Of a stretch of 64,000 bases of DNA, positions 4,066 through 56,488 are shown piece after piece (the first letter of the stretch is position 1; each line of letters opens with the position of its first letter). The translations under genes were made by a program, and so were the position numbers. Origin of the DNA: Candidatus Thorarchaeota archaeon (GTDB lineage: Archaea > Asgardarchaeota > Thorarchaeia > Thorarchaeales > Thorarchaeaceae). The notes under the pieces are model-generated. The model was not told the DNA's origin and ran no database searches. It worked only from the letters and a program-made list of their open reading frames with translations. The DNA is taken from the NCBI GenBank assembly GCA_048882045.1, contig JBHLRZ010000001.1, positions 69,693 through 133,692 of the forward strand. The letters run 5' to 3'.

Positions 4066-4353
4066 TTGAAGATGAGTCTCTACGAAACTGGAAGAGTATG
4101 TGTAAAGACTATGGGGCGAGAGGCCGGTAGTCTTTGTGTAGTTATAGAAAAGAAAGACGAGTCCTATGTAGTGGTGACTGGACCTAAGCATCTGAGCGGA
4201 ATAAGGAGGCGAAACTGCAATATCAGACATTTGGAGCCGCTTGAAACCATACTCACAATTACTGCTGATGCAGACGATAATGCAGTCGAAAAGGCTATTG
4301 AAGAGGCTGGATTGACTGATAAATTCAAAACCAAGATTCGTCTTCAGATATAG
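4066..4353 (+). CDS. rpl14e: 50S ribosomal protein L14e (KOW domain)
   Basis: 95 aa, GRVCVKTMGREAGSLCVV KOW-like motif, conserved position. Confidence 0.8.
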   Translation: MKMSLYETGRVCVKTMGREAGSLCVVIEKKDESYVVVTGPKHLSGIRRRNCNIRHLEPLETILTITADADDNAVEKAIEEAGLTDKFKTKIRLQI

Positions 4354-4382
4354 AATGATTTGTCATCAGGAGGGTAGATTCG

Positions 4383-5399
4383 TTGACGGGCATATTGCCT
4401 GCAGATAGGCCCCGTGAACTGATTCTGAAATCATCTGAAACCACCAATCCAGAGTATGGATTTTCATCATTAGAAAACTTACCAATAGAGTATTTACTTG
4501 AGAATGGAGTCATTGCTCTAGACAAACCATCTGGTCCTACAAGCCATGAGGTCGCTACATGGGTGAGAAAAATCCTAGAGGTTGACCGTGTGGGTCATGG
4601 TGGAACTCTCGATCCTGGTGTCACTGGTATACTGCCAACTGGAGTAGGAAATGCAACCAAGGCTATGCAGGCTTTGCTTCCTGCTGGAAAAGAGTATGTT
4701 TGTGTGTTGGAACTCCATCACAATACTCCAGAGGATGAAATTCGAAGAGTAATCGGAGAATTTGTAGGTAGGCTCTACCAGAAACCACCCTTGCGGTCTT
4801 CTGTGAAGAGAGTGCTCAGGGTTCGTGAAATATACTACAATGAAATTCTCGAAATCAAGGGTCGTCTGGCACTATTTCGTGTAGGATGTCAGGCTGGTAC
4901 CTACATTCGAAAGCTATGTTTTGACATTGGGGAGGCTCTAGGAGTGGGAGGACACATGCGAGAACTGCGAAGGACTCGGGTGGGATCTTTTAGAGAAGAT
5001 GAGCACATGTGCTCACTCTATGACCTGAAAGATGCTTTCATGTTCTGGAAGGAAAACGGAGATGAAACTGAACTCAGGAAGTACTTGCTCCCAATCGAAT
5101 TTGGACTTGGGCATCTTCCTGTGATAAATATCCGTGATTCTGCAGTGGATGCAATTTGTCATGGAGCTGACCTAGCGGCTAGTGGCGTTGTCAGTTTGAG
5201 TAGTAATATGAGGAAGGGAGACATAGTCGTTCTAAAGACCTTGAAGGGGGAGGCTGTTGCTGTTGCTAAATGCAGTGATACTAGTGACAGAATAGCCAAG
5301 GCAAAGAGCGGGATTGTTGCCAAGAGTGAACGAGTCCTAATGGAGCGAGGTCGCTATCCTTCACTCTGGAAGAAGAAGACCCAGGACGAATCGTCTTAG
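4383..5399 (+). CDS. cbf5: tRNA/rRNA pseudouridine synthase Cbf5 (H/ACA RNP catalytic subunit, TruB family)
   Basis: GHGGTLDPGVTGILP catalytic Asp motif, C-terminal PUA domain, 338 aa. Confidence 0.9.
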   Translation: MTGILPADRPRELILKSSETTNPEYGFSSLENLPIEYLLENGVIALDKPSGPTSHEVATWVRKILEVDRVGHGGTLDPGVTGILPTGVGNATKAMQALLPAGKEYVCVLELHHNTPEDEIRRVIGEFVGRLYQKPPLRSSVKRVLRVREIYYNEILEIKGRLALFRVGCQAGTYIRKLCFDIGEALGVGGHMRELRRTRVGSFREDEHMCSLYDLKDAFMFWKENGDETELRKYLLPIEFGLGHLPVINIRDSAVDAICHGADLAASGVVSLSSNMRKGDIVVLKTLKGEAVAVAKCSDTSDRIAKAKSGIVAKSERVLMERGRYPSLWKKKTQDESS

Positions 5400-48092: not shown

Positions 48093-49376
48093 GTGTCATC
48101 TATCAATCACATGAAACCTGACATTCTCCTCACCAATATTGGACAGATTGCTACTCTGGAAGGCTATAGTGAGAAACCGAAAACAGGAGAAGAAATGAAT
48201 GAGGTTTCAATCATTGAAAATGGCGCCATAGCCATAAAGGATGGGAAGATAGTTGCGGTTGGAACCACGAAAGAAGTCCTCTCTGAGGTTTCAGAGGACC
48301 CCGATCTGCCAAGTATCGAGTTTCCCGAGATGCTTGCAGTTCCTGGATTCATTGACAGTCACACGCATTTGGTCTTTGGTGGTTCAAGAGAGAACGACTT
48401 TGCAATGAAACTGGCTGGGAAGACCTATCTGGAGATACTGGAGGCAGGCGGAGGAATCCTGAATACATTAAGATCGACTCGAGCAGCAAGTCTTGAGGAC
48501 TTGGTGAGTAATGGCTTTTCATATGCTGAGGGCATGCTGAGTATTGGAACTACTACACTAGAGGCAAAGAGTGGATATGGTTTAGATACAGAGAATGAGC
48601 TGAAGATGCTCAAGTCGGTTGAGAATCTTCGTGAGATGCTTCCAACCAATTTTGTATCAACATTCATGGGGGCACATGCAGTTCCTCCAGAGTACACAGG
48701 CAAGACCGAAGACTATGTAGATATCGTCATTAACGAAATGATTCCAGCAGTAGGAGAACAAGGATTTGCAGAGTACTGTGATGTGTTTTGTGAGAAGGGT
48801 GTCTTTGATATTGAACAGTCTCGTAGAGTCCTTCTTGCAGCAAAGAAGCACGGAATGAAACTCAAGGTCCATGCAGATGAGATTGTTCAACTGGGAGGAG
48901 CAAGTCTAGCAGCAGAGGTTGGTGCAGTGTCGGCGGATCATCTGCTTATGGCTTCTAATGAGGGTTTGGAGGACTTGCTCAAAGCAGGAACCATTGCAAC
49001 ATTGTTACCAGCAACAGCATTTAGTCTGGATACTGCATATGCAGACGCACGAATGATGATTGACTTGGGACTTCCATTGGCTTTGGCTACAGATTTCAAT
49101 CCAAACTGTGCAAATGAATCTCTATTCTTCACGATAGCACTGGCCTGTTACAAGATGAAGATGAAACCCAAAGAAGCACTGTCAGCAGTTACAATCAACG
49201 CTGCCCACGCACTTGACCGAGGACATACGCATGGCAGCATAGAGGTTGGTAAGAACGCCAACATCTTGGTCTTGGACTGTCCTAATCCAGAGTATCTAAC
49301 TTGGAGGTTTGGAGTTAATCTAGTACATACCGTGATTGTTAATGGCCAGGTTGTTCACACAAAGCTTGGACCCTGA
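48093..49376 (+). CDS. hutI: Imidazolonepropionase
   Basis: GFIDSHTHLVFGGSR amidohydrolase motif, 427 aa, hut gene neighbourhood. Confidence 0.85.
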   Translation: MSSINHMKPDILLTNIGQIATLEGYSEKPKTGEEMNEVSIIENGAIAIKDGKIVAVGTTKEVLSEVSEDPDLPSIEFPEMLAVPGFIDSHTHLVFGGSRENDFAMKLAGKTYLEILEAGGGILNTLRSTRAASLEDLVSNGFSYAEGMLSIGTTTLEAKSGYGLDTENELKMLKSVENLREMLPTNFVSTFMGAHAVPPEYTGKTEDYVDIVINEMIPAVGEQGFAEYCDVFCEKGVFDIEQSRRVLLAAKKHGMKLKVHADEIVQLGGASLAAEVGAVSADHLLMASNEGLEDLLKAGTIATLLPATAFSLDTAYADARMMIDLGLPLALATDFNPNCANESLFFTIALACYKMKMKPKEALSAVTINAAHALDRGHTHGSIEVGKNANILVLDCPNPEYLTWRFGVNLVHTVIVNGQVVHTKLGP

Positions 49377-49378
49377 TT

Positions 49379-50923
49379 CTAGACATCCAACAATGGACCA
49401 GTTATTTTCTCAGCAGAAGCTATCAACTTTCCTTGATTAATGAGAGCTCGAATCTTGTTGATATCAGGAGCCAGTGCTCGATCATCCTCAAGCATACTTA
49501 CTTCCTTTCGGAGGGCTGTTTTTGCTGCTTCAATTGGTTCTGATGCCTTCAGTGGGGCGAGAAGGTCAATCCCTTGGGCTGCACACATGTATTCAATGGC
49601 AATCACATTCCTGATATTTCCAAGAATGTTTGATGCTTTGCGTGCAGCGATTGTTCCCATGCTCACGTGGTCCTCTTGGTCTGCGCTAGTAGGGATAGAG
49701 TCAACACTTGCAGGATGAGCGAGTCCCTTGTTCTCTGAAACCAGTGCGGCTGCTGTGTACTGAGCAATCATCATTCCTGACTCAAGACCGCCCTCAGTGG
49801 TTAGAAATGCAGGAAGTCCGCTCAGGTGAGGATTCACGAGACGGTTTATTCTTCTCTCGGAGATGTTTGCAAGCTCAGCCAGAGCAATGCTCAAGAAATC
49901 CATTGCTAGTGCGATGGGTTGGCCATGAAAATTGCCACCTGAAACAACAGTGTTGTCATCAGAGAATACGAGTGGGTTGTCTGTTGCTGAATTGAGCTCG
50001 GTTTCGATGACACTCTGCACATATCTGATGGTGTCAAGTGTTGCTCCAATCACCTGGGGAATACAGCGTAGTGAATAAGCATCTTGAACTACACCACAGT
50101 CTGCATGGGACTTATTGATCTCACTGTCGGGAAGAAGAACCCTCATTGCCACTGCTACATCAGTCTGACCTTCGTGTGGACGAATTGTATGGATTCTCTC
50201 ATCAAAAGCAACACGAGTCCCACGTAACGCCTCCAGACTCATAGCTGCAGCGATCATTGCATCCTTCACAGTGTCGAACGCATCATAGACAGTGATAGCG
50301 CCAACTGAAGCCATGGGCTGGGTGCCATTGATGAGTGCCACACCTTCTTTGGCTTGAAGTTCTAGAGATCTGATTCCTGCTTTCTTCAGAGCTTTAGCCC
50401 CATCCATACGGTCTCCTTTGTAGACTGCTTCGCCCTCTCCAATCATAACGAGGGCCATATGAGCCAGAGGCGCCAGGTCACCACTAGATCCCACAGATCC
50501 CTGTTGTGGTACTACAGGTGTCACGTCCTTATTCAGCAGCTCAATCAGAGTAGAGATTACCTCTAGCCTGACACCAGAGTATCCTTTCGCAAGAGCATTT
50601 GCACGAAGGAGCATCATACCCCGGACTACTTCAACTGGAAAGGGATCTCCAACGCCAACACTGTGACTGCGTATCAGATTCACCTGAAGCTTTGCAAGGT
50701 CTACTGAACTGATACACACATCTGAGAGGTCTCCAAACCCAGTGTTGATTCCATAGACTACTTTTCCCTCTTTTATTGCGGCCTCAACTACCGCTCGACT
50801 GCTCTTGATTCGAGGGATTGTTGATTCATGCAAAAGAACTGGCTCATTGTATCGGGCAACCTGCACAACATCTTCTAGAGTGAGACTCTCACCATCAACC
50901 ATGACGGGCATTTTATCCACCAA
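49379..50923 (-). CDS. hutH: Histidine ammonia-lyase
   Basis: MIO-forming GSVGSSGDLAPLAHM motif, 514 aa. Confidence 0.9.
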   Translation of the reverse strand: MVDKMPVMVDGESLTLEDVVQVARYNEPVLLHESTIPRIKSSRAVVEAAIKEGKVVYGINTGFGDLSDVCISSVDLAKLQVNLIRSHSVGVGDPFPVEVVRGMMLLRANALAKGYSGVRLEVISTLIELLNKDVTPVVPQQGSVGSSGDLAPLAHMALVMIGEGEAVYKGDRMDGAKALKKAGIRSLELQAKEGVALINGTQPMASVGAITVYDAFDTVKDAMIAAAMSLEALRGTRVAFDERIHTIRPHEGQTDVAVAMRVLLPDSEINKSHADCGVVQDAYSLRCIPQVIGATLDTIRYVQSVIETELNSATDNPLVFSDDNTVVSGGNFHGQPIALAMDFLSIALAELANISERRINRLVNPHLSGLPAFLTTEGGLESGMMIAQYTAAALVSENKGLAHPASVDSIPTSADQEDHVSMGTIAARKASNILGNIRNVIAIEYMCAAQGIDLLAPLKASEPIEAAKTALRKEVSMLEDDRALAPDINKIRALINQGKLIASAEKITGPLLDV

Positions 50924-51021: not shown

Positions 51022-51528
51022 CTATACTATTCGCTCTTCCCGAGGTCCTAGTTTTAATCCCGTATCAAGCATAAAGCTCTTGTTGCAATTCTGACAGACC
51101 ACTGATCCATCATCTTGAATGTTCTTCTCTGAATAAAGATAGTAAGCGTTACAGAATGGACACCCCGACCCCTTACGACCTGGGTATTTTCGACTAAGTT
51201 CCCAACCATGAAGTCTAGCAAGTTGCTCGATTTTCCTCAGAAATGTCGACTCTGCAGCAGCTTGTGAGCCAAAATCAATTCGAAGGAGACCCTCTCCACC
51301 ACCGCTAGAGAGTACAGTTATTTCACATTCGTTGATTTCTACGTAGTGCTGGACAATGATAGTAATAGTTTGCTCACTCATTGTTCGGAGTGCTAGCTCA
51401 GAACGGATGAAGACAGCATTAATCATTCCTCCGCATTCCCAGACCTTCTCAAGTTTGTCAGAGTAATCTTCACGTAATAATGATAGAAGAGAGTCTATCT
51501 CGATATTTCGAACTACGAGAGTGACCAC
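51022..51528 (-). CDS. Hypothetical protein with C-terminal zinc ribbon, embedded in hut cluster
   Basis: CPFCN...CQNCN, 168 aa. Confidence 0.4.
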   Translation of the reverse strand: MVTLVVRNIEIDSLLSLLREDYSDKLEKVWECGGMINAVFIRSELALRTMSEQTITIIVQHYVEINECEITVLSSGGGEGLLRIDFGSQAAAESTFLRKIEQLARLHGWELSRKYPGRKGSGCPFCNAYYLYSEKNIQDDGSVVCQNCNKSFMLDTGLKLGPREERIV

Positions 51529-51585: not shown

Positions 51586-53607
51586 TTATGCCTCTTCGAA
51601 TGTCTTCTCAACCAACTGTTCTACTAGGCCTTTCTTTGGAATATGTGGAAGCGAAATTTGGCCTTTGTTTCCAAGTCTTTGATTCCATTCTATGACGGTT
51701 TCAATTGCGTTTTCGTTGCGCGCCCAGGCCCGACGGGCAACTCCTCCCATGACATCCCAGTCCAATGCAGATTGTATGATTGAATCAACTCGATCACTGC
51801 CATCAAGAATCAACCCAAAACCACCATTGATTGCTTTACCAGTGCCAACTCCACCGCCATTTGAGAGGACACAGAGAGTCATGCCCCTTGCAATGTCACC
51901 AGCCCAGGCTTGATGTGCCATATCACTCATCACATTGCTTCCATCACGGATGTTAGCGGTTTCTCTGAAAGGGCTGTCAGTCCCTCCTGTATCATGGTGG
52001 TCTCGACCAAGCATAATCGGACCAACCTTTCCGGTACGCACCATTTCATTGAATTTCAGAGCAATATTCACGCGACCCTTGGCATCAGCGTACAGGATTC
52101 GTGCCTGTGACCCTACAACAAGAGCGTTCTTTTCAGCATCTCGAATCCAGATGTAGTTGTCCCTGTCCTGACCACGTTGATCAGGGTCAATCTGTGACAT
52201 TGCCATCTTGTCCGTTTCAATTAGGTCATCATGCTCTCCACTCAAACAAACCCATCTGAAGGGACCATATCCATAGTCAAAACAGAGAGGGCCCATTATG
52301 TCTTCAACATAGGACGGGAAGATGAAGCCATCAGATGTGTTCTCTCCGTTCTTTGCTATCCTCTTGACACCGGCATCAAAGACAGCCTTCATGAAGCTGT
52401 TTCCGTAGTCCCAGAAGAATGTCCCCTGTTTTGTCATTTTTTCAATGAGTTCAAACTGTTTCCTTAGGGATTTGTCGACTAGGTCATTGAACTGGTCACG
52501 ATCACTCTTCAGGAGTTCTCGGCCTTCCTCGTATGTAATACCCTGAGGTGTGTATCCTCCTCCATAGACATCATGACAGGATGTCTGATCTGAAGCCAGT
52601 TCTATCATGATATCCTTGTCAACAACATACTGCCAGAGGTCTACTACATTGCCGAAGTAACCTATGGAAACAGGTTCTTCTTTCTGACGATAATCCTTGA
52701 CCCATTCGAATATCTCATCAAGGTCAGACGAGTGTTTGCTCAACCAACCCTGCTCAAATCTGGTTTCAATCCGACTCTTGTCGACCTCAGCAATTATACC
52801 AATACCTCCAGCAATCTCAACTGCCTTTGCCTGCGCACCGCTCATCCCACCTAGACCGGAAGTGAGGAACACCTTGCCTCTTAGGTCCTTGTCATCTGGA
52901 GTGCCGAGGTACAACCTTCCTGCATTCAGAAGAGTGATGTATGTCCCATGTACAATTCCTTGAGGACCGATATACATCCAGCCTCCAGCTGTCATCTGAC
53001 CATAGTTTGCGACTCCCATGGCGGCTGCATGATGGAATCCCTCCAATGTGTCAAACATACCAACCATGAGACCGTTTGTTGTGATGGCACGAGGGGCATT
53101 AGGATGAGATGGGAAGAGACCAACAGGATGTCCTGAGCTTACAACAAGGGTCTGTTCATTCGTCATCTGTTCCAGATACTTCTTGATCAACTGATATTGG
53201 AGCCAGGACTGACAGACCTGACCGCTCTCTCCATATGTGACAAGTTCGTAAGGATAGAGGGCTACATCAAAGTCCAGGTTATTGTCAATCATTAGCTGGA
53301 GGGCTCGAGCTTCAAGAATCCCCTTGTATTGGTCCACATGCTTTGCTTTGATTGGCCCCTCCGGACGGTATCGATAGGCGTAGATGCGTCCCCGCGTCAT
53401 GAGTTCGTTCAGGAATTCTGGAGCCAAGGTTTCATGGAGATTCTCTGGCACATATCGCAGGGCATTCTTTACGGCAACTACTGTGTCAGATGGACTCAGG
53501 TTGAATCCTCTATCGGGAGCTCGTCTGTACTGAGGGTCAAAAACAGGCTCGGGAGGTAATTCAGAAGCGAGCTTGATAGTCATAGCCTTAGTAGTATCGA
53601 ATTTCAT
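51586..53607 (-). CDS. hutU: Urocanate hydratase (long form)
   Basis: NAD-binding LTSGLGGMSGAQ, 673 aa (long form comparable to eukaryotic UROC1). Confidence 0.9.
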   Translation of the reverse strand: MKFDTTKAMTIKLASELPPEPVFDPQYRRAPDRGFNLSPSDTVVAVKNALRYVPENLHETLAPEFLNELMTRGRIYAYRYRPEGPIKAKHVDQYKGILEARALQLMIDNNLDFDVALYPYELVTYGESGQVCQSWLQYQLIKKYLEQMTNEQTLVVSSGHPVGLFPSHPNAPRAITTNGLMVGMFDTLEGFHHAAAMGVANYGQMTAGGWMYIGPQGIVHGTYITLLNAGRLYLGTPDDKDLRGKVFLTSGLGGMSGAQAKAVEIAGGIGIIAEVDKSRIETRFEQGWLSKHSSDLDEIFEWVKDYRQKEEPVSIGYFGNVVDLWQYVVDKDIMIELASDQTSCHDVYGGGYTPQGITYEEGRELLKSDRDQFNDLVDKSLRKQFELIEKMTKQGTFFWDYGNSFMKAVFDAGVKRIAKNGENTSDGFIFPSYVEDIMGPLCFDYGYGPFRWVCLSGEHDDLIETDKMAMSQIDPDQRGQDRDNYIWIRDAEKNALVVGSQARILYADAKGRVNIALKFNEMVRTGKVGPIMLGRDHHDTGGTDSPFRETANIRDGSNVMSDMAHQAWAGDIARGMTLCVLSNGGGVGTGKAINGGFGLILDGSDRVDSIIQSALDWDVMGGVARRAWARNENAIETVIEWNQRLGNKGQISLPHIPKKGLVEQLVEKTFEEA

Positions 53608-53683: not shown

Positions 53684-54055
53684 TCATGATGGAGGAATGA
53701 GTGCATTGAACAAGCTGTCTTGAGGCAACTTCTCTGTCTCGAGAAAAGCCGTCCAGAGGCCATCCCTAGTCATCACACTCAAGGTCATACCTTCTTTGTA
53801 TAATCGTAGGAGATACTCTAGATGCTTGATTAGATCCTGAATGAACTTTGACACATCCTCACCAGACTGTGGATCCTGTCGAGAGGGGAGAGAAACCTCG
53901 ACTTCGATTCTTCGTGGTGCCTCTGGATCCACTATAGCAAGAATTCGAACCCAGTCATTCTCACATAGGATTGACATGCACTCTTCGTCCTCAGATTCTA
54001 GGCCTGAAGCCAATGCTTCTTGCCATCTGGACTTCAATTCAAGAAGAGAAACCAT
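53684..54055 (-). CDS. Hypothetical acidic 123-aa protein
   Basis: ORF only. Confidence 0.3.
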   Translation of the reverse strand: MVSLLELKSRWQEALASGLESEDEECMSILCENDWVRILAIVDPEAPRRIEVEVSLPSRQDPQSGEDVSKFIQDLIKHLEYLLRLYKEGMTLSVMTRDGLWTAFLETEKLPQDSLFNALIPPS

Positions 54056-54357
54056 CAGACCACCATACCATAACGATGAAACACCGCCTTCGCATTCTCA
54101 TGATTGACAGCATAGAGTGTTCTCCGCATGTCATCCAGGTTTGGTATCCTTGCACAAAGATTAGTTTCGACAAGCCGATCTAAGGCAAACGTGACAGTTC
54201 TTAATGGAACATCTGCTTCTTTGCTGATTACACGAGGAGGATGCGGACCCCTTTTTGTCAAAAAAGCAAGGATCTGGAGGGCACTTTTTGGAAGTCTAAT
54301 GGCTGATTGCACATTTTCCACCATGAGGAATTGTACATGATTTGGATATGTATGCAC
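54055..54357 (-). CDS. wHTH transcriptional regulator (paralog A)
   Basis: KSALQILAFL...RTVTFALDRLVETNLCARIPNLDDMRRTLY. Paralogous to the 55636..55980 gene. Confidence 0.6.
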   Translation of the reverse strand: MHTYPNHVQFLMVENVQSAIRLPKSALQILAFLTKRGPHPPRVISKEADVPLRTVTFALDRLVETNLCARIPNLDDMRRTLYAVNHENAKAVFHRYGMVV

Positions 54358-54512
54358 GTTACGTCTCAGATTCGGAAACCTACTTCATCATTTGGTGAAT
54401 CTTGTTGTTTCTGGAATCTCGAGCTTCGGAAAATTACATTAAGAAAAAGCCGAAGACATTGCGTTTTTAACCGTGAGTCATCTCTCTAACCTCAATCGCA
54501 GGTTGAGGACCT

Positions 54513-55634
54513 ATGAGTAGTATTTGGACCAAAGCACGTAAGAACACACCCAAGATAGATTGTGGTCTCTGTGGATTTCCAACCTGCGCAACCTTTGCTC
54601 GTTCCCTTGTAACAAATGAAACAGATCTGTCAAGATGCCCAATCCTCTCACTAGATGCTTTTGGAAACAATCAGAATGAACTGGCTGAACTGCTAGCTGA
54701 CGTTCCAATAACAGCAAAACCGGCCCCTGAGAGACCGGAAGATGGAGTTCTGATGTCAAAACCGTGCATGGATGCACCGGAGCTTCAGATGGCTGAGATG
54801 CGAATCTTCAATGGAGTAGATCCTGGATCCCCCCAGAGATTTGGCGTTTTGGATCCAGTCATCCTTTGTTGGCTTTTAGATTGTGTATCATCTAAATATC
54901 AGGATATGAAATGCAGTGTGGACCTTGCGTATGCATGGGGAGACATGGAAGAAACTAAGATTCACATTCTCAGAGATGGAAAGGTGAGAATGAGACGTGC
55001 AAGGGGAAAAGAGCATGCTTTAGAATCCTTCAGGATAATTGAACGGACAGTTATTGGAGCAACTATATGCAATTGCTGTGGGCATGATCTTTTCTCGGTG
55101 CTTGCAGGACTGGCACCAGCGAAGAAGGCCCATACTATCCTCAAGGCTGGAAGCTCACTAGTGATTGATCCCGGACAGATTAATTGGACCTTGAGTAGTA
55201 ATGCGATTGAAACCGCATTAGAAAAGAAGATGTTTAATCTAATCGAACCAATACATACTAGTCTAACAAATCAACTCGATCTTATGATAACCGGAGATTT
55301 CGATACAGAGAGTAAGTTCGATGCACGACCAGAGATATGCAAATACATCAGCATGATGCTTGAACCAGAGTCTCAAACCTATGTTACCATGTTCTTGAAG
55401 GGGTTAGCGAATGAGTTCTTCATGGATGGAGGACTGCGAGGACTCCGTGAGATTCGATTGCTAGTCCAAGAACAGCCTAAGTACAGTGATTTTGTAGTAG
55501 ATCTATTGAGTAATGTGAGAACGAAGAATATGTCAGGATATGACATTGATTCGCTTGATCAACCTTCGACACTCTTGCTAGCACATGCCTTGAGAGTTTC
55601 CAGAGCACTAGATCTCTACGATAGGTGGAAGTAG
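54513..55634 (+). CDS. Protein with N-terminal putative Fe-S motif (CGxCGxxxC, RnfB/CdhE-type), remainder unknown
   Basis: IDCGLCGFPTCATFARSL in the first 30 aa, 373 aa, no other motif recognised. Confidence 0.5.
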   Translation: MSSIWTKARKNTPKIDCGLCGFPTCATFARSLVTNETDLSRCPILSLDAFGNNQNELAELLADVPITAKPAPERPEDGVLMSKPCMDAPELQMAEMRIFNGVDPGSPQRFGVLDPVILCWLLDCVSSKYQDMKCSVDLAYAWGDMEETKIHILRDGKVRMRRARGKEHALESFRIIERTVIGATICNCCGHDLFSVLAGLAPAKKAHTILKAGSSLVIDPGQINWTLSSNAIETALEKKMFNLIEPIHTSLTNQLDLMITGDFDTESKFDARPEICKYISMMLEPESQTYVTMFLKGLANEFFMDGGLRGLREIRLLVQEQPKYSDFVVDLLSNVRTKNMSGYDIDSLDQPSTLLLAHALRVSRALDLYDRWK

Positions 55635-55635
55635 T

Positions 55636-55980
55636 CTAGGCTAGCTTACGCCAGGTCAATGGAGAAACATGTGATGTGAGTGGAGTGTTCTTGTATTTCT
55701 CCATTAGAAGTTTAGCTTGATCCATATTTACATGATATTTGGGCCGTCTCATATCAAGTAGGTTTGGAATCCGTTTCAGAATCTGGTCCCTCATTAGACT
55801 TCTAAGTGCGAAACTGACGGTACGTGGTGCCATATCCAATTTGTCACTGATCTCTTTAGGACACATGGGACCATCGAGTATCAACGCACTTAGGATTGCG
55901 AAGGTGCTCTTGGGAGTTCTTCCAGGTCGTACAGACACCATATTTACACTCCTTCTTTCTTGATTCTGAGAAGGTTGCAA
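55636..55980 (-). CDS. wHTH transcriptional regulator (paralog B)
   Basis: PKEISDKLDMAPRTVSFALRSLMRDQILKRIPNLLDMRRPKYHV aligns with paralog A. Confidence 0.6.
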   Translation of the reverse strand: MQPSQNQERRSVNMVSVRPGRTPKSTFAILSALILDGPMCPKEISDKLDMAPRTVSFALRSLMRDQILKRIPNLLDMRRPKYHVNMDQAKLLMEKYKNTPLTSHVSPLTWRKLA

Positions 55981-56068
55981 AGGATATCTATTTGCGTGAA
56001 GCTTTTGGGTGTGGTTTTAGCTTGAACAAGAAAGTTCAGAGCTCAAACACGAAACGGCAAGTGCGGTT

Positions 56069-56488
56069 TTGAGACGAACTATCTCTCAAGATATATCAAG
56101 AACTTCATCCATTGAGATTATGGTGTCAGAACTGGCAGGAATTGTCTTCTATAGAACAACAATGCTTGAAACAATCGTTGACTTCTATGTGAACGATGTT
56201 GGGATGCACATCTGGTTGGAACAGGATGATTGTACAATTCTAAGTCATGGAAATCTCCTGCTTGGATTCTGTAATCGTGATACAGTAGAGGTGGACTCTG
56301 TGATCTGTTTCTTTTATCCTACTGAGGATGATGTGGATGCCATGTATGAATTACTCAAAAACATCGCATCAACCGAACCAGCTATCAGTGAGAAATATCA
56401 GATCTACCAGTTCTTCGCAGAAGATCCAGAGGGTCGAGCTTTGGAATTCCAATCTTTCCTTCATCCAGTAGAACCAATCGGCTTTTAG
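56069..56488 (+). CDS. VOC/glyoxalase-bleomycin-resistance family protein
   Basis: Paired beta-alpha-beta-beta-beta modules (IVFYRTTMLETIVDFYVNDVGM ... FFAEDPEGRALEF). The true start may be the internal Met near 56120. Confidence 0.55.
   Translation: MRRTISQDISRTSSIEIMVSELAGIVFYRTTMLETIVDFYVNDVGMHIWLEQDDCTILSHGNLLLGFCNRDTVEVDSVICFFYPTEDDVDAMYELLKNIASTEPAISEKYQIYQFFAEDPEGRALEFQSFLHPVEPIGF

Follow-up and report, generated by a model that had tools for sequence, protein, structure and literature searches.

A three-module Fe-S protein family of archaea and the winged-helix regulator genes that flank one of its members in Thorarchaeota

The 64-kb window of a Candidatus Thorarchaeota metagenome-assembled genome (MAG) that was analyzed here, and whose numbering is used throughout, contains a plus-strand gene for a 373-aa protein (the FeS gene) with a minus-strand gene for a small winged helix-turn-helix (wHTH) protein on either side. 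The locus raises the question of what this protein does, and of whether its two neighbours, here called wHTH-A and wHTH-B, regulate it together. An earlier note on this DNA, made from the sequence alone, had read the layout as a symmetric unit of regulator, cargo and regulator under tight redox control. The reading that we prefer, with a probability of about 0.5, is a different one, in which the protein would be a sensor of iron-sulfur (Fe-S) or sulfur status that acts via protein partners and is expressed in this genome under the control of wHTH-A.

The 373-aa protein: an Fe-S module and two predicted folds

The protein is 100% identical to the NCBI entry P0001, an '(Fe-S)-binding protein' of a Candidatus Thorarchaeota MAG. 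The Fe-S motif that the earlier note had seen in its N-terminal cysteines is borne out: the Pfam family PF04060 'FeS' matches residues 13-43 significantly (42.7 bits with the cut-off at 23, E = 4.5e-11), the N terminus can be aligned to that of the CFeSP large subunit with no gap (4djd_C, E = 6.8e-5), and C17, C20, C25 and C42 coincide with cysteines of that subunit, which are the ligands of its [4Fe-4S] cluster in structures such as 2ycl. All four are invariant in 39 homologs, down to approximately 30% identity. The module very probably binds a [4Fe-4S] cluster through these residues. The same C-x2-C-x4-C-x16-C-P module is found in the CFeSP large subunit (AcsC/CdhE) and in RnfB, and here it stands at the extreme N terminus. 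Unlike CFeSP, however, the 373-aa protein lacks the TIM-barrel corrinoid domain (NF003195, 32.9 bits with the cut-off at 306, covers residues 10-62 only), and unlike RnfB/RsxB, it has neither a membrane anchor nor ferredoxin domains (TIGR01944, 22 bits against 68.7; no Fer4 hit in Pfam).

The remainder of the protein had been described as having no recognisable fold. An AlphaFold2 model built from the 39-sequence alignment (pLDDT 91.7, pTM 0.91) shows otherwise, with one TBP-like domain followed by a PhoU-like helical bundle. The TBP-repeat fold (S1-H1-S2-S3-S4-S5-H2) is present in the model, and TBP clearly outranks all other structural matches. When the whole protein was compared with the PDB using Foldseek, no match was significant (best E = 0.29), and the TBP and CFeSP signals recurred; a sequence profile of residues 64-373 found no relative in the PDB. 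No curated Pfam or NCBIfam model covers the protein beyond its Fe-S module, and neither collection gave a TBP or PhoU hit for the window protein. The resemblance to PhoU amounts to 4-9% identity, with no Pfam PhoU hit and no pst or pho genes in the context, and helical bundles give many generic matches.

A second set of conserved cysteines, absent from the earlier note, lies in and immediately after the TBP-like domain. Besides the cysteines of the Fe-S module, C85, C119, C134, C186, C188, C189 and H207 are invariant in the 39 homologs, the set including a C186xCC189 motif, and C124 and C276 are nearly invariant. The seven invariant residues probably form a candidate second metal or Fe-S site.

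Archaeal relatives and their Fe-S assembly neighbours

We built a profile of residues 64-373, leaving out the common Fe-S module, and scored it against 1.84 billion representative proteins at E <= 0.001. The search returned 147 proteins, approximately 28 of the Thorarchaeota family and approximately 100 more distant ones, mostly of 330-430 aa, for which Bathyarchaeia, Hydrothermarchaeota, Thermoplasmata and 'Euryarchaeota' were named as sources. In a joint alignment at 17-24% identity, C85, C134-S135, G156 and C189 are invariant and P84, C119, R161 and C186 nearly so, while the conservation of C188 and H207 belongs to the Thorarchaeota branch. The PF04060 module is present in 20 of 31 aligned sequences. 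Some members make the predicted folds visible at the sequence level: Pfam finds PhoU in two (E = 1.2e-6) and TBP (PF00352) in two (E = 0.0023), NCBIfam finds phoU_full in three (E = 8.9e-5) together with weak TBP hits, and a profile of the distant branch matches solved structures of CFeSP (1.2e-8), of TBP from M. jannaschii (4.6e-4) and of a PhoU homolog (0.0034). The 373-aa protein is a member of an uncharacterised, archaea-wide family with three predicted modules.

The labels that the family carries are all automated, namely '(Fe-S)-binding protein', 'hypothetical protein', the JGI label 'ArsR family metal-binding transcriptional regulator' and, once, 'phosphate uptake regulator'. The literature that we searched yielded no published description of the family and nothing on the JGI label or on PF04060 in archaea, and the architecture does not appear in the 2013 survey of TBP domains (PMC3597702). 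We also considered a link to the COG label 'methanogenesis marker protein 9 / predicted metal-binding transcription factor', and rejected it, as no such NCBIfam hit occurred in 31 members.

We then looked up the genomic contexts of 12 distant relatives, as individual look-ups rather than a census (L-numbers denote fetched homolog loci). In seven of them (L051, L055, L057, L059, L062, L063 and L064) a gene of the cysteine-desulfurase family (PF00266) lies in the same co-directional cluster, and four of these seven also have a gene for an IscU-type scaffold (NifU_N). Genes for ThiI-like, MoaE, ThiS, SufBD, XdhC or PP-loop proteins are often close by in these seven. L058 has MoaE, ThiS and HcyBio as neighbours. 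Four of the 12 contexts contain no sulfur-related neighbour, and five no nearby desulfurase gene. A study of Methanosarcina acetivorans notes four genes of unknown function in a cluster with iscSU1 (PMC7585200). Because distant branches cluster with desulfurase-family genes, often together with IscU-type genes, we infer a role of the family in Fe-S or sulfur homeostasis. Since the linkage is a property of the distant relatives, it transfers to the window protein by homology only.

Similar neighbours of a fainter kind occur in distant-clade Thorarchaeota (L017:3277-3528 and its neighbours; L027:3743-5536), where ThiS/MoaD-like ubiquitin-fold genes, an MBL-rhodanese fusion and an aldehyde:ferredoxin-oxidoreductase-like gene lie within a few kb of the FeS homolog. 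These loci have a faint sulfur or molybdopterin flavour, and no desulfurase.

The neighbourhoods of the distant relatives also bear on a rival explanation, which we consider possible but doubtful, that the protein is an accessory of Fe-S assembly rather than a sensor. It would then serve as electron donor, cluster carrier or co-scaffold for MisS/MisU (IscS/IscU-type), with the PF04060 cluster transferring electrons as in CFeSP and RnfB and the second cysteine set receiving sulfur or a nascent cluster. According to a 2026 review, the archaeal minimal ISC (MIS) system, made up of a desulfurase and a scaffold (MisS, MisU), 'does not contain additional components', and it is described without ferredoxin or carrier (PMC13066941). 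The relatives lie on the same strand as, and closely spaced with, desulfurase-family and NifU_N genes, PF04060 is otherwise known from electron-transfer proteins, and the conserved cysteines are many, joined in the distant branch by an additional C...DCxSGxCxxC...CP insert; yet the Thorarchaeota subfamily is unlinked from desulfurase and IscU genes, and so, for the desulfurase, are the five relatives mentioned above. Moreover, PhoU-like bundles are typical of regulatory, not catalytic, proteins.

A direct role in transcription has to be weighed as well. IscR, an Fe-S-dependent regulator, occupies the head position in bacterial isc operons, and the relatives in L059, L062 and L064 likewise head an order of gene, NifU and desulfurase. 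The 373-aa protein could be a functional analogue of IscR that binds DNA via its TBP-like domain, in keeping with TBP as the best structural match, the weak sequence-level TBP hits and the repeated JGI label of a metal-binding transcriptional regulator. We consider this unlikely. The analogy to IscR-like sensors is functional only and extends to a Cys-rich, probable Fe-S protein that heads or sits inside desulfurase-IscU-type clusters; the family differs from IscR in having no Rrf2 or other wHTH, another fold, no such linkage in the window and a charge that disfavours DNA binding. The protein is acidic (pI 5.5), whereas the flanking wHTH proteins are basic (pI 10.0 for wHTH-A and 10.4 for wHTH-B), and the net charge of its TBP-like core is -2, with a mean of -1.5 in the Thorarchaeota branch. 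It has one TBP repeat instead of the two that make up the basic DNA-binding saddle. In a Pfam scan at E <= 1, PF04060 was the sole match and no HTH domain was detected, neither HTH_5 nor HTH_20 of the ArsR/SmtB winged-HTH type, and the secondary structure and fold matches of the model contain no HTH-type element; the 'ArsR family' part of the JGI label is therefore unsupported. Compared with TBP itself and with euryarchaeal proteins that have a single TBP domain (Brindefalk et al., 2013, PMC3597702), the 373-aa protein is set apart by its acidity, its invariant cysteines and its fusion to an Fe-S and a PhoU-like module. Domains of the TBP fold can also act as platforms for protein interaction, e.g., in the adaptin and COPG appendages (PMC3597702).

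Two divergent regulator-gene pairs and their probable control regions

To place the window in its lineage, 50 loci with a homolog of the 373-aa protein were fetched, one genome per species, all from Thorarchaeota, Hermodarchaeota or Promethearchaeota MAGs; they were searched with all window neighbours, and the neighbouring open reading frames (ORFs) were then clustered. In 15 loci, the close clade, the FeS protein is at least 50% identical to that of the window, and in the remaining 35 the identity is 30-45%. In 12 of the 15 close-clade loci the FeS gene lies between wHTH-A and wHTH-B, so that the arrangement does recur in related genomes. Neither of the two outcomes that the earlier note named as refuting it, loss of the N-terminal Cys motif in homologs or of the arrangement in every related genome, is thus observed. 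The exceptions are L015, which stops at a contig edge, L004, which has neither wHTH-A nor the adjoining gene p123, and L002, where wHTH-B is gone and the FeS gene and p139 are 60 nt apart. Synteny in the close clade covers hutU, p123, wHTH-A, the FeS gene, wHTH-B, p139, p195 and a photolyase gene. None of the 35 distant loci has a wHTH homolog flanking the FeS gene (L046 has one approximately 2.6 kb off). The flanking of the FeS gene by wHTH genes thus holds for one Thorarchaeota clade and fails in the 35 more distant loci, and because of this confinement we regard the layout as lineage-specific.

The flanks of the distant loci are occupied by other genes. A signal peptidase S26 gene lies divergent upstream of the FeS homolog in 32 of the 35, and an unrelated protein of approximately 150 aa (L017:9137-9595(-) and 23 other distant loci), with several cysteines and no Pfam match, is encoded convergently and directly downstream in 24. 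An apparent 'fam1(-) FeS(+) fam2(-)' order in distant Thorarchaeota was considered as a pair of diverged wHTH genes and rejected, fam1 being the signal peptidase and fam2 having no wHTH match. In L053, a PadR-type wHTH gene (4223-4726(-)) is divergent from the distant relative P0144; it echoes the arrangement of wHTH-A with an unrelated regulator family.

wHTH-A and wHTH-B are true paralogs, as had been noted, with 46% identity across 76 aa (E = 7e-20) and close similarity in the recognition-helix region. wHTH-B matches HTH_24 (29.7 bits, cut-off 21.9) and HTH_5 (22.9, cut-off 22) in Pfam, and wHTH-A reaches 23.2 bits with MarR, slightly below the cut-off of 24.6 (E = 6.5e-5). By domain match and basic charge, both have the features of small MarR/ArsR-type wHTH regulators. 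The ORF list confirms the three genes at the coordinates given earlier, 54055-54357(-) for 100 aa, 54513-55634(+) for 373 aa and 55636-55980(-) for 114 aa. Both wHTH ORFs appear over-extended at the 5' end, because orthologs of wHTH-A have approximately 86 aa and those of wHTH-B 100-103 aa, because L001 and L007 carry a stop codon within the region that matches the N-terminal extension of the window's wHTH-A, and because the NCBI call for wHTH-B (P0274, 100% identical) has 101 aa. The mechanical wHTH-A ORF extends to a GTG at 54357; the true starts are likely 54324 for wHTH-A (89 aa) and 55941 for wHTH-B (101 aa), the former of which widens the region between wHTH-A and the FeS gene (IG1) to 188 bp. 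On its other side, wHTH-A shares 1 nt of its stop codon with the start codon of p123. The p123-wHTH-A order is preserved in 13 loci, in which p123 always accompanies wHTH-A, and the two genes are probably co-transcribed as an operon. The p123 protein, with a pI of 4.4, is acidic; neither Pfam nor NCBIfam gave a match for it, and it may act as a partner or co-factor of wHTH-A.

wHTH-A and the FeS gene are divergent, and candidate operator sequences lie in the region between them. In the window, two TTCGGAA palindromes stand in IG1 with a spacing of 54 bp (54371-54377 and 54425-54431). An imperfect third site, TTCTGGAA, occupies 54409-54416, and a TATA-like, T/A-rich TTTTTAA is found at 54464-54470. 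An alignment of 16 upstream regions shows conserved blocks upstream of the FeS gene: IG1 is conserved at the nucleotide level with palindromes fixed in position, whereas the flanking non-coding sequence diverges. TTCNGAA occurs in two to four copies in 11 of the 13 loci that have wHTH-A directly upstream, compared with a background of 0.125 per 200 nt, and in nine loci a pair is spaced by exactly 54 bp. These palindromes most likely represent the operator of wHTH-A. In L003, the whole control block lies between wHTH-A and an inserted gene for an M20-family peptidase, with the FeS gene 17 nt after the latter; the block still heads a unit containing the FeS gene, because it precedes the peptidase-FeS unit and remains beside wHTH-A.

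Three genomes of the close clade have the peptidase gene inserted immediately upstream of the FeS gene (L002:1-882, L003:1561-2946 and L004:3837-5201), where the two apparently form an operon. Over the whole window, TTCNGAA has 48 matches against 32 +/- 5.8 expected, a number that none of 100 shuffles reached, and TTCNGAA may have a more general place in this genome, whether regulatory or compositional.

The conservation of IG1 also bears on the simplest null explanation, that the adjacency is without functional meaning and reflects synteny inherited within one clade. The neighbourhood from hutU to the photolyase gene is indeed syntenic in that same clade, the arrangement is absent elsewhere, and the wHTH family is large (611 clusters). 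Inheritance of this sort is hard to reconcile with palindromes that keep their positions amid diverging non-coding sequence and with the L003 control region, which has stayed at the head of the FeS-containing unit after the peptidase insertion, and we regard it as highly improbable.

At the other end of the FeS gene, wHTH-B is convergent with it, 1 nt separating the stop codons, and divergent from p139, its direct neighbour in 11 of the 13 loci of the close clade where wHTH-B is present (the adjacency is absent in L006 and obscured in L014 by an uncalled ORF). The p139 protein gives weak matches to Glyoxalase in Pfam (E = 0.032) and FosG in NCBIfam (E = 0.0038), and its gene is the probable target of wHTH-B. 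The region between the two genes (IG2) shows near-invariant blocks in an alignment of 13 regions, GATATCTATTTGCGTGAA and TGCGG(A/T)TTTGAGAC, and further ones follow within 55942-56110 of the window, GGGTTTGAAATCTAC, AGCTAAAAACCGAA, TGCGGATTTGAGAC and TCCCAAAACATATCAGG, with equivalents in L001, L003-L005 and L007-L014, although the flanking proteins are merely approximately 70% identical. As the distance between the last two of these blocks changes by numbers not divisible by 3, the start of p139 is uncertain. IG2 has no Rfam match and yields no consensus RNA structure (-0.31 kcal/mol, 0 compensatory pairs), and for these reasons its blocks are likelier to be protein-binding DNA than an RNA element. 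Of the 13 aligned IG2 regions, that of L012 has one exact TTCNGAA, and the other 12, the window's among them, have none.

The simplest reading of the gene order is therefore not a symmetric unit but two divergent pairs in tandem, one made up of p123-wHTH-A and the FeS gene, the other of wHTH-B and the VOC-like gene p139. Joint, tight control of the FeS gene by both paralogs in response to redox state, as proposed earlier, could draw on the presence of the paralogs on both sides of the gene in the window and in 12 related loci and on their closely similar recognition helices. We consider it very unlikely, however, since wHTH-B adjoins the 3' end of that gene and faces p139, a search for a common operator revealed no 7-9-mer present in both IG1 and IG2, L002 has lost wHTH-B with the FeS gene and p139 still adjacent, L004 has lost wHTH-A together with p123, and the layout is missing from the 35 other Thorarchaeota and Asgard loci. 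The arrangement resembles the known divergent MarR/ArsR regulator-target pairs in its small basic wHTH genes, each head-to-head with a probable target gene, and, at IG1, in a short region with conserved palindromes. It differs from them in that two paralogous pairs stand in tandem and that the proteins are minimal (approximately 89-101 aa), with no recognisable ligand-binding extension.

Table 1. Features of the locus in window coordinates
Feature	Coordinates	Strand	Description
p123	53684..54055	-	123 aa, acidic, function unassigned; from the ORF list
wHTH-A	54055..54324	-	small basic MarR/ArsR-like winged-helix protein, 89 aa from probable ATG 54324
IG1	54325..54512	.	188-bp divergent control region, wHTH-A / FeS gene
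373-aa three-domain Fe-S protein	54513..55634	+	entire gene with stop codon
PF04060 Fe-S module	54549..54641	+	residues 13-43; Cys17, Cys20, Cys25, Cys42
Single TBP-like alpha/beta domain (residues ~76-185) and Cys 'knuckle' (186-232)	54738..55208	+	
PhoU-like helical bundle, C-terminal	55209..55631	+	residues ~233-373
wHTH-B	55636..55941	-	wHTH-A paralog, conserved C-terminal tail; 101 aa from probable ATG 55941
IG2	55942..56068	.	divergent region, wHTH-B / p139
p139	56069..56488	+	acidic VOC/glyoxalase-like protein; start uncertain

The hut genes adjoin the locus, in agreement with the earlier note (HutI 48093-49376, HutH 49379-50923 and HutU 51586-53607), and beyond synteny we found no tie between the two. 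Between HutH and HutU, a 168-aa ORF (51022-51528(-)) has a C-terminal zinc-ribbon-like CxxC...CxxC and weak Pfam matches only. Genes for t6A tRNA modification lie directly upstream of hut (Sua5/YrdC 45547-46284, a THUMP-domain protein 46281-46829 and Cgi121 46826-47407), with a phosphoribosyltransferase gene nearby at 47422-48003.

The sensor reading and what it would mean

In the reading that we prefer, the PF04060 module would hold a [4Fe-4S] cluster and the TBP-fold domain a second metal or Fe-S centre, and the protein would sense cluster occupancy or redox state and pass it to partners through its PhoU-like or TBP-like surfaces, not by direct DNA binding. In the Thorarchaeota lineage, the gene would no longer be linked to MIS genes and would be expressed from the 188-bp divergent control region that it has in common with the wHTH-A-p123 operon. 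wHTH-A would bind TTCNGAA and govern its own operon as well as the FeS gene, and wHTH-B, the tandem paralog, faces p139 and would control it.

Several observations weigh against this reading. A tblastn search found no desulfurase, NifU/IscU or MoaE homolog in the 64-kb window or within +/-8 kb of the 50 loci, and the cysteine insert of the distant branch is not present in the Thorarchaeota branch; for both reasons, the function of the Thorarchaeota subfamily may have diverged. The sample of distant contexts is small, and L059 and L064 are syntenic and hence not independent. On the side of regulation, L014 and L015 have a single exact TTCNGAA site, and since the loci are phylogenetically related, conservation of the motif in each is not independent evidence. 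The FeS gene is retained in L004 without wHTH-A and in L002 without wHTH-B, which indicates that the regulators are dispensable in some genomes. Finally, all of the functional claims, from cluster binding and the second site to the sensor role and the assignment of regulators to sites, rest on sequence, predicted structure and gene context.

At the level of the locus, the lesson is modest: two divergent regulator/target units of an ordinary kind, particular to one lineage, with TTCNGAA as a clear operator candidate that can be tested. The regulator layout is ordinary and specific to one clade, and the protein is the interesting object, its relatives being reproducibly tied to Fe-S assembly genes. 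We tentatively suggest that the superfamily could be an unrecognised third component of the archaeal MIS system (MisS/MisU), acting as a sensor/regulator or as a partner that handles electrons or clusters, and built on a single TBP domain with an Fe-S or metal centre. How the TBP domain arose and its uses outside TBP are debated (PMC3597702). If the suggestion is correct, a single TBP-fold domain fused to an Fe-S module would add an architecture not listed in the 2013 survey (PMC3597702), and archaea would make wide use of the TBP fold in a non-transcriptional, or ancestral regulatory, capacity. The Thorarchaeota copy would then be a derived, separately regulated branch. For the family as a whole, the recurrent neighbouring Fe-S protein would be a candidate for the missing carrier, electron donor or regulator of MIS (PMC13066941), and thus a candidate part of that system that could be tested in tractable archaea.

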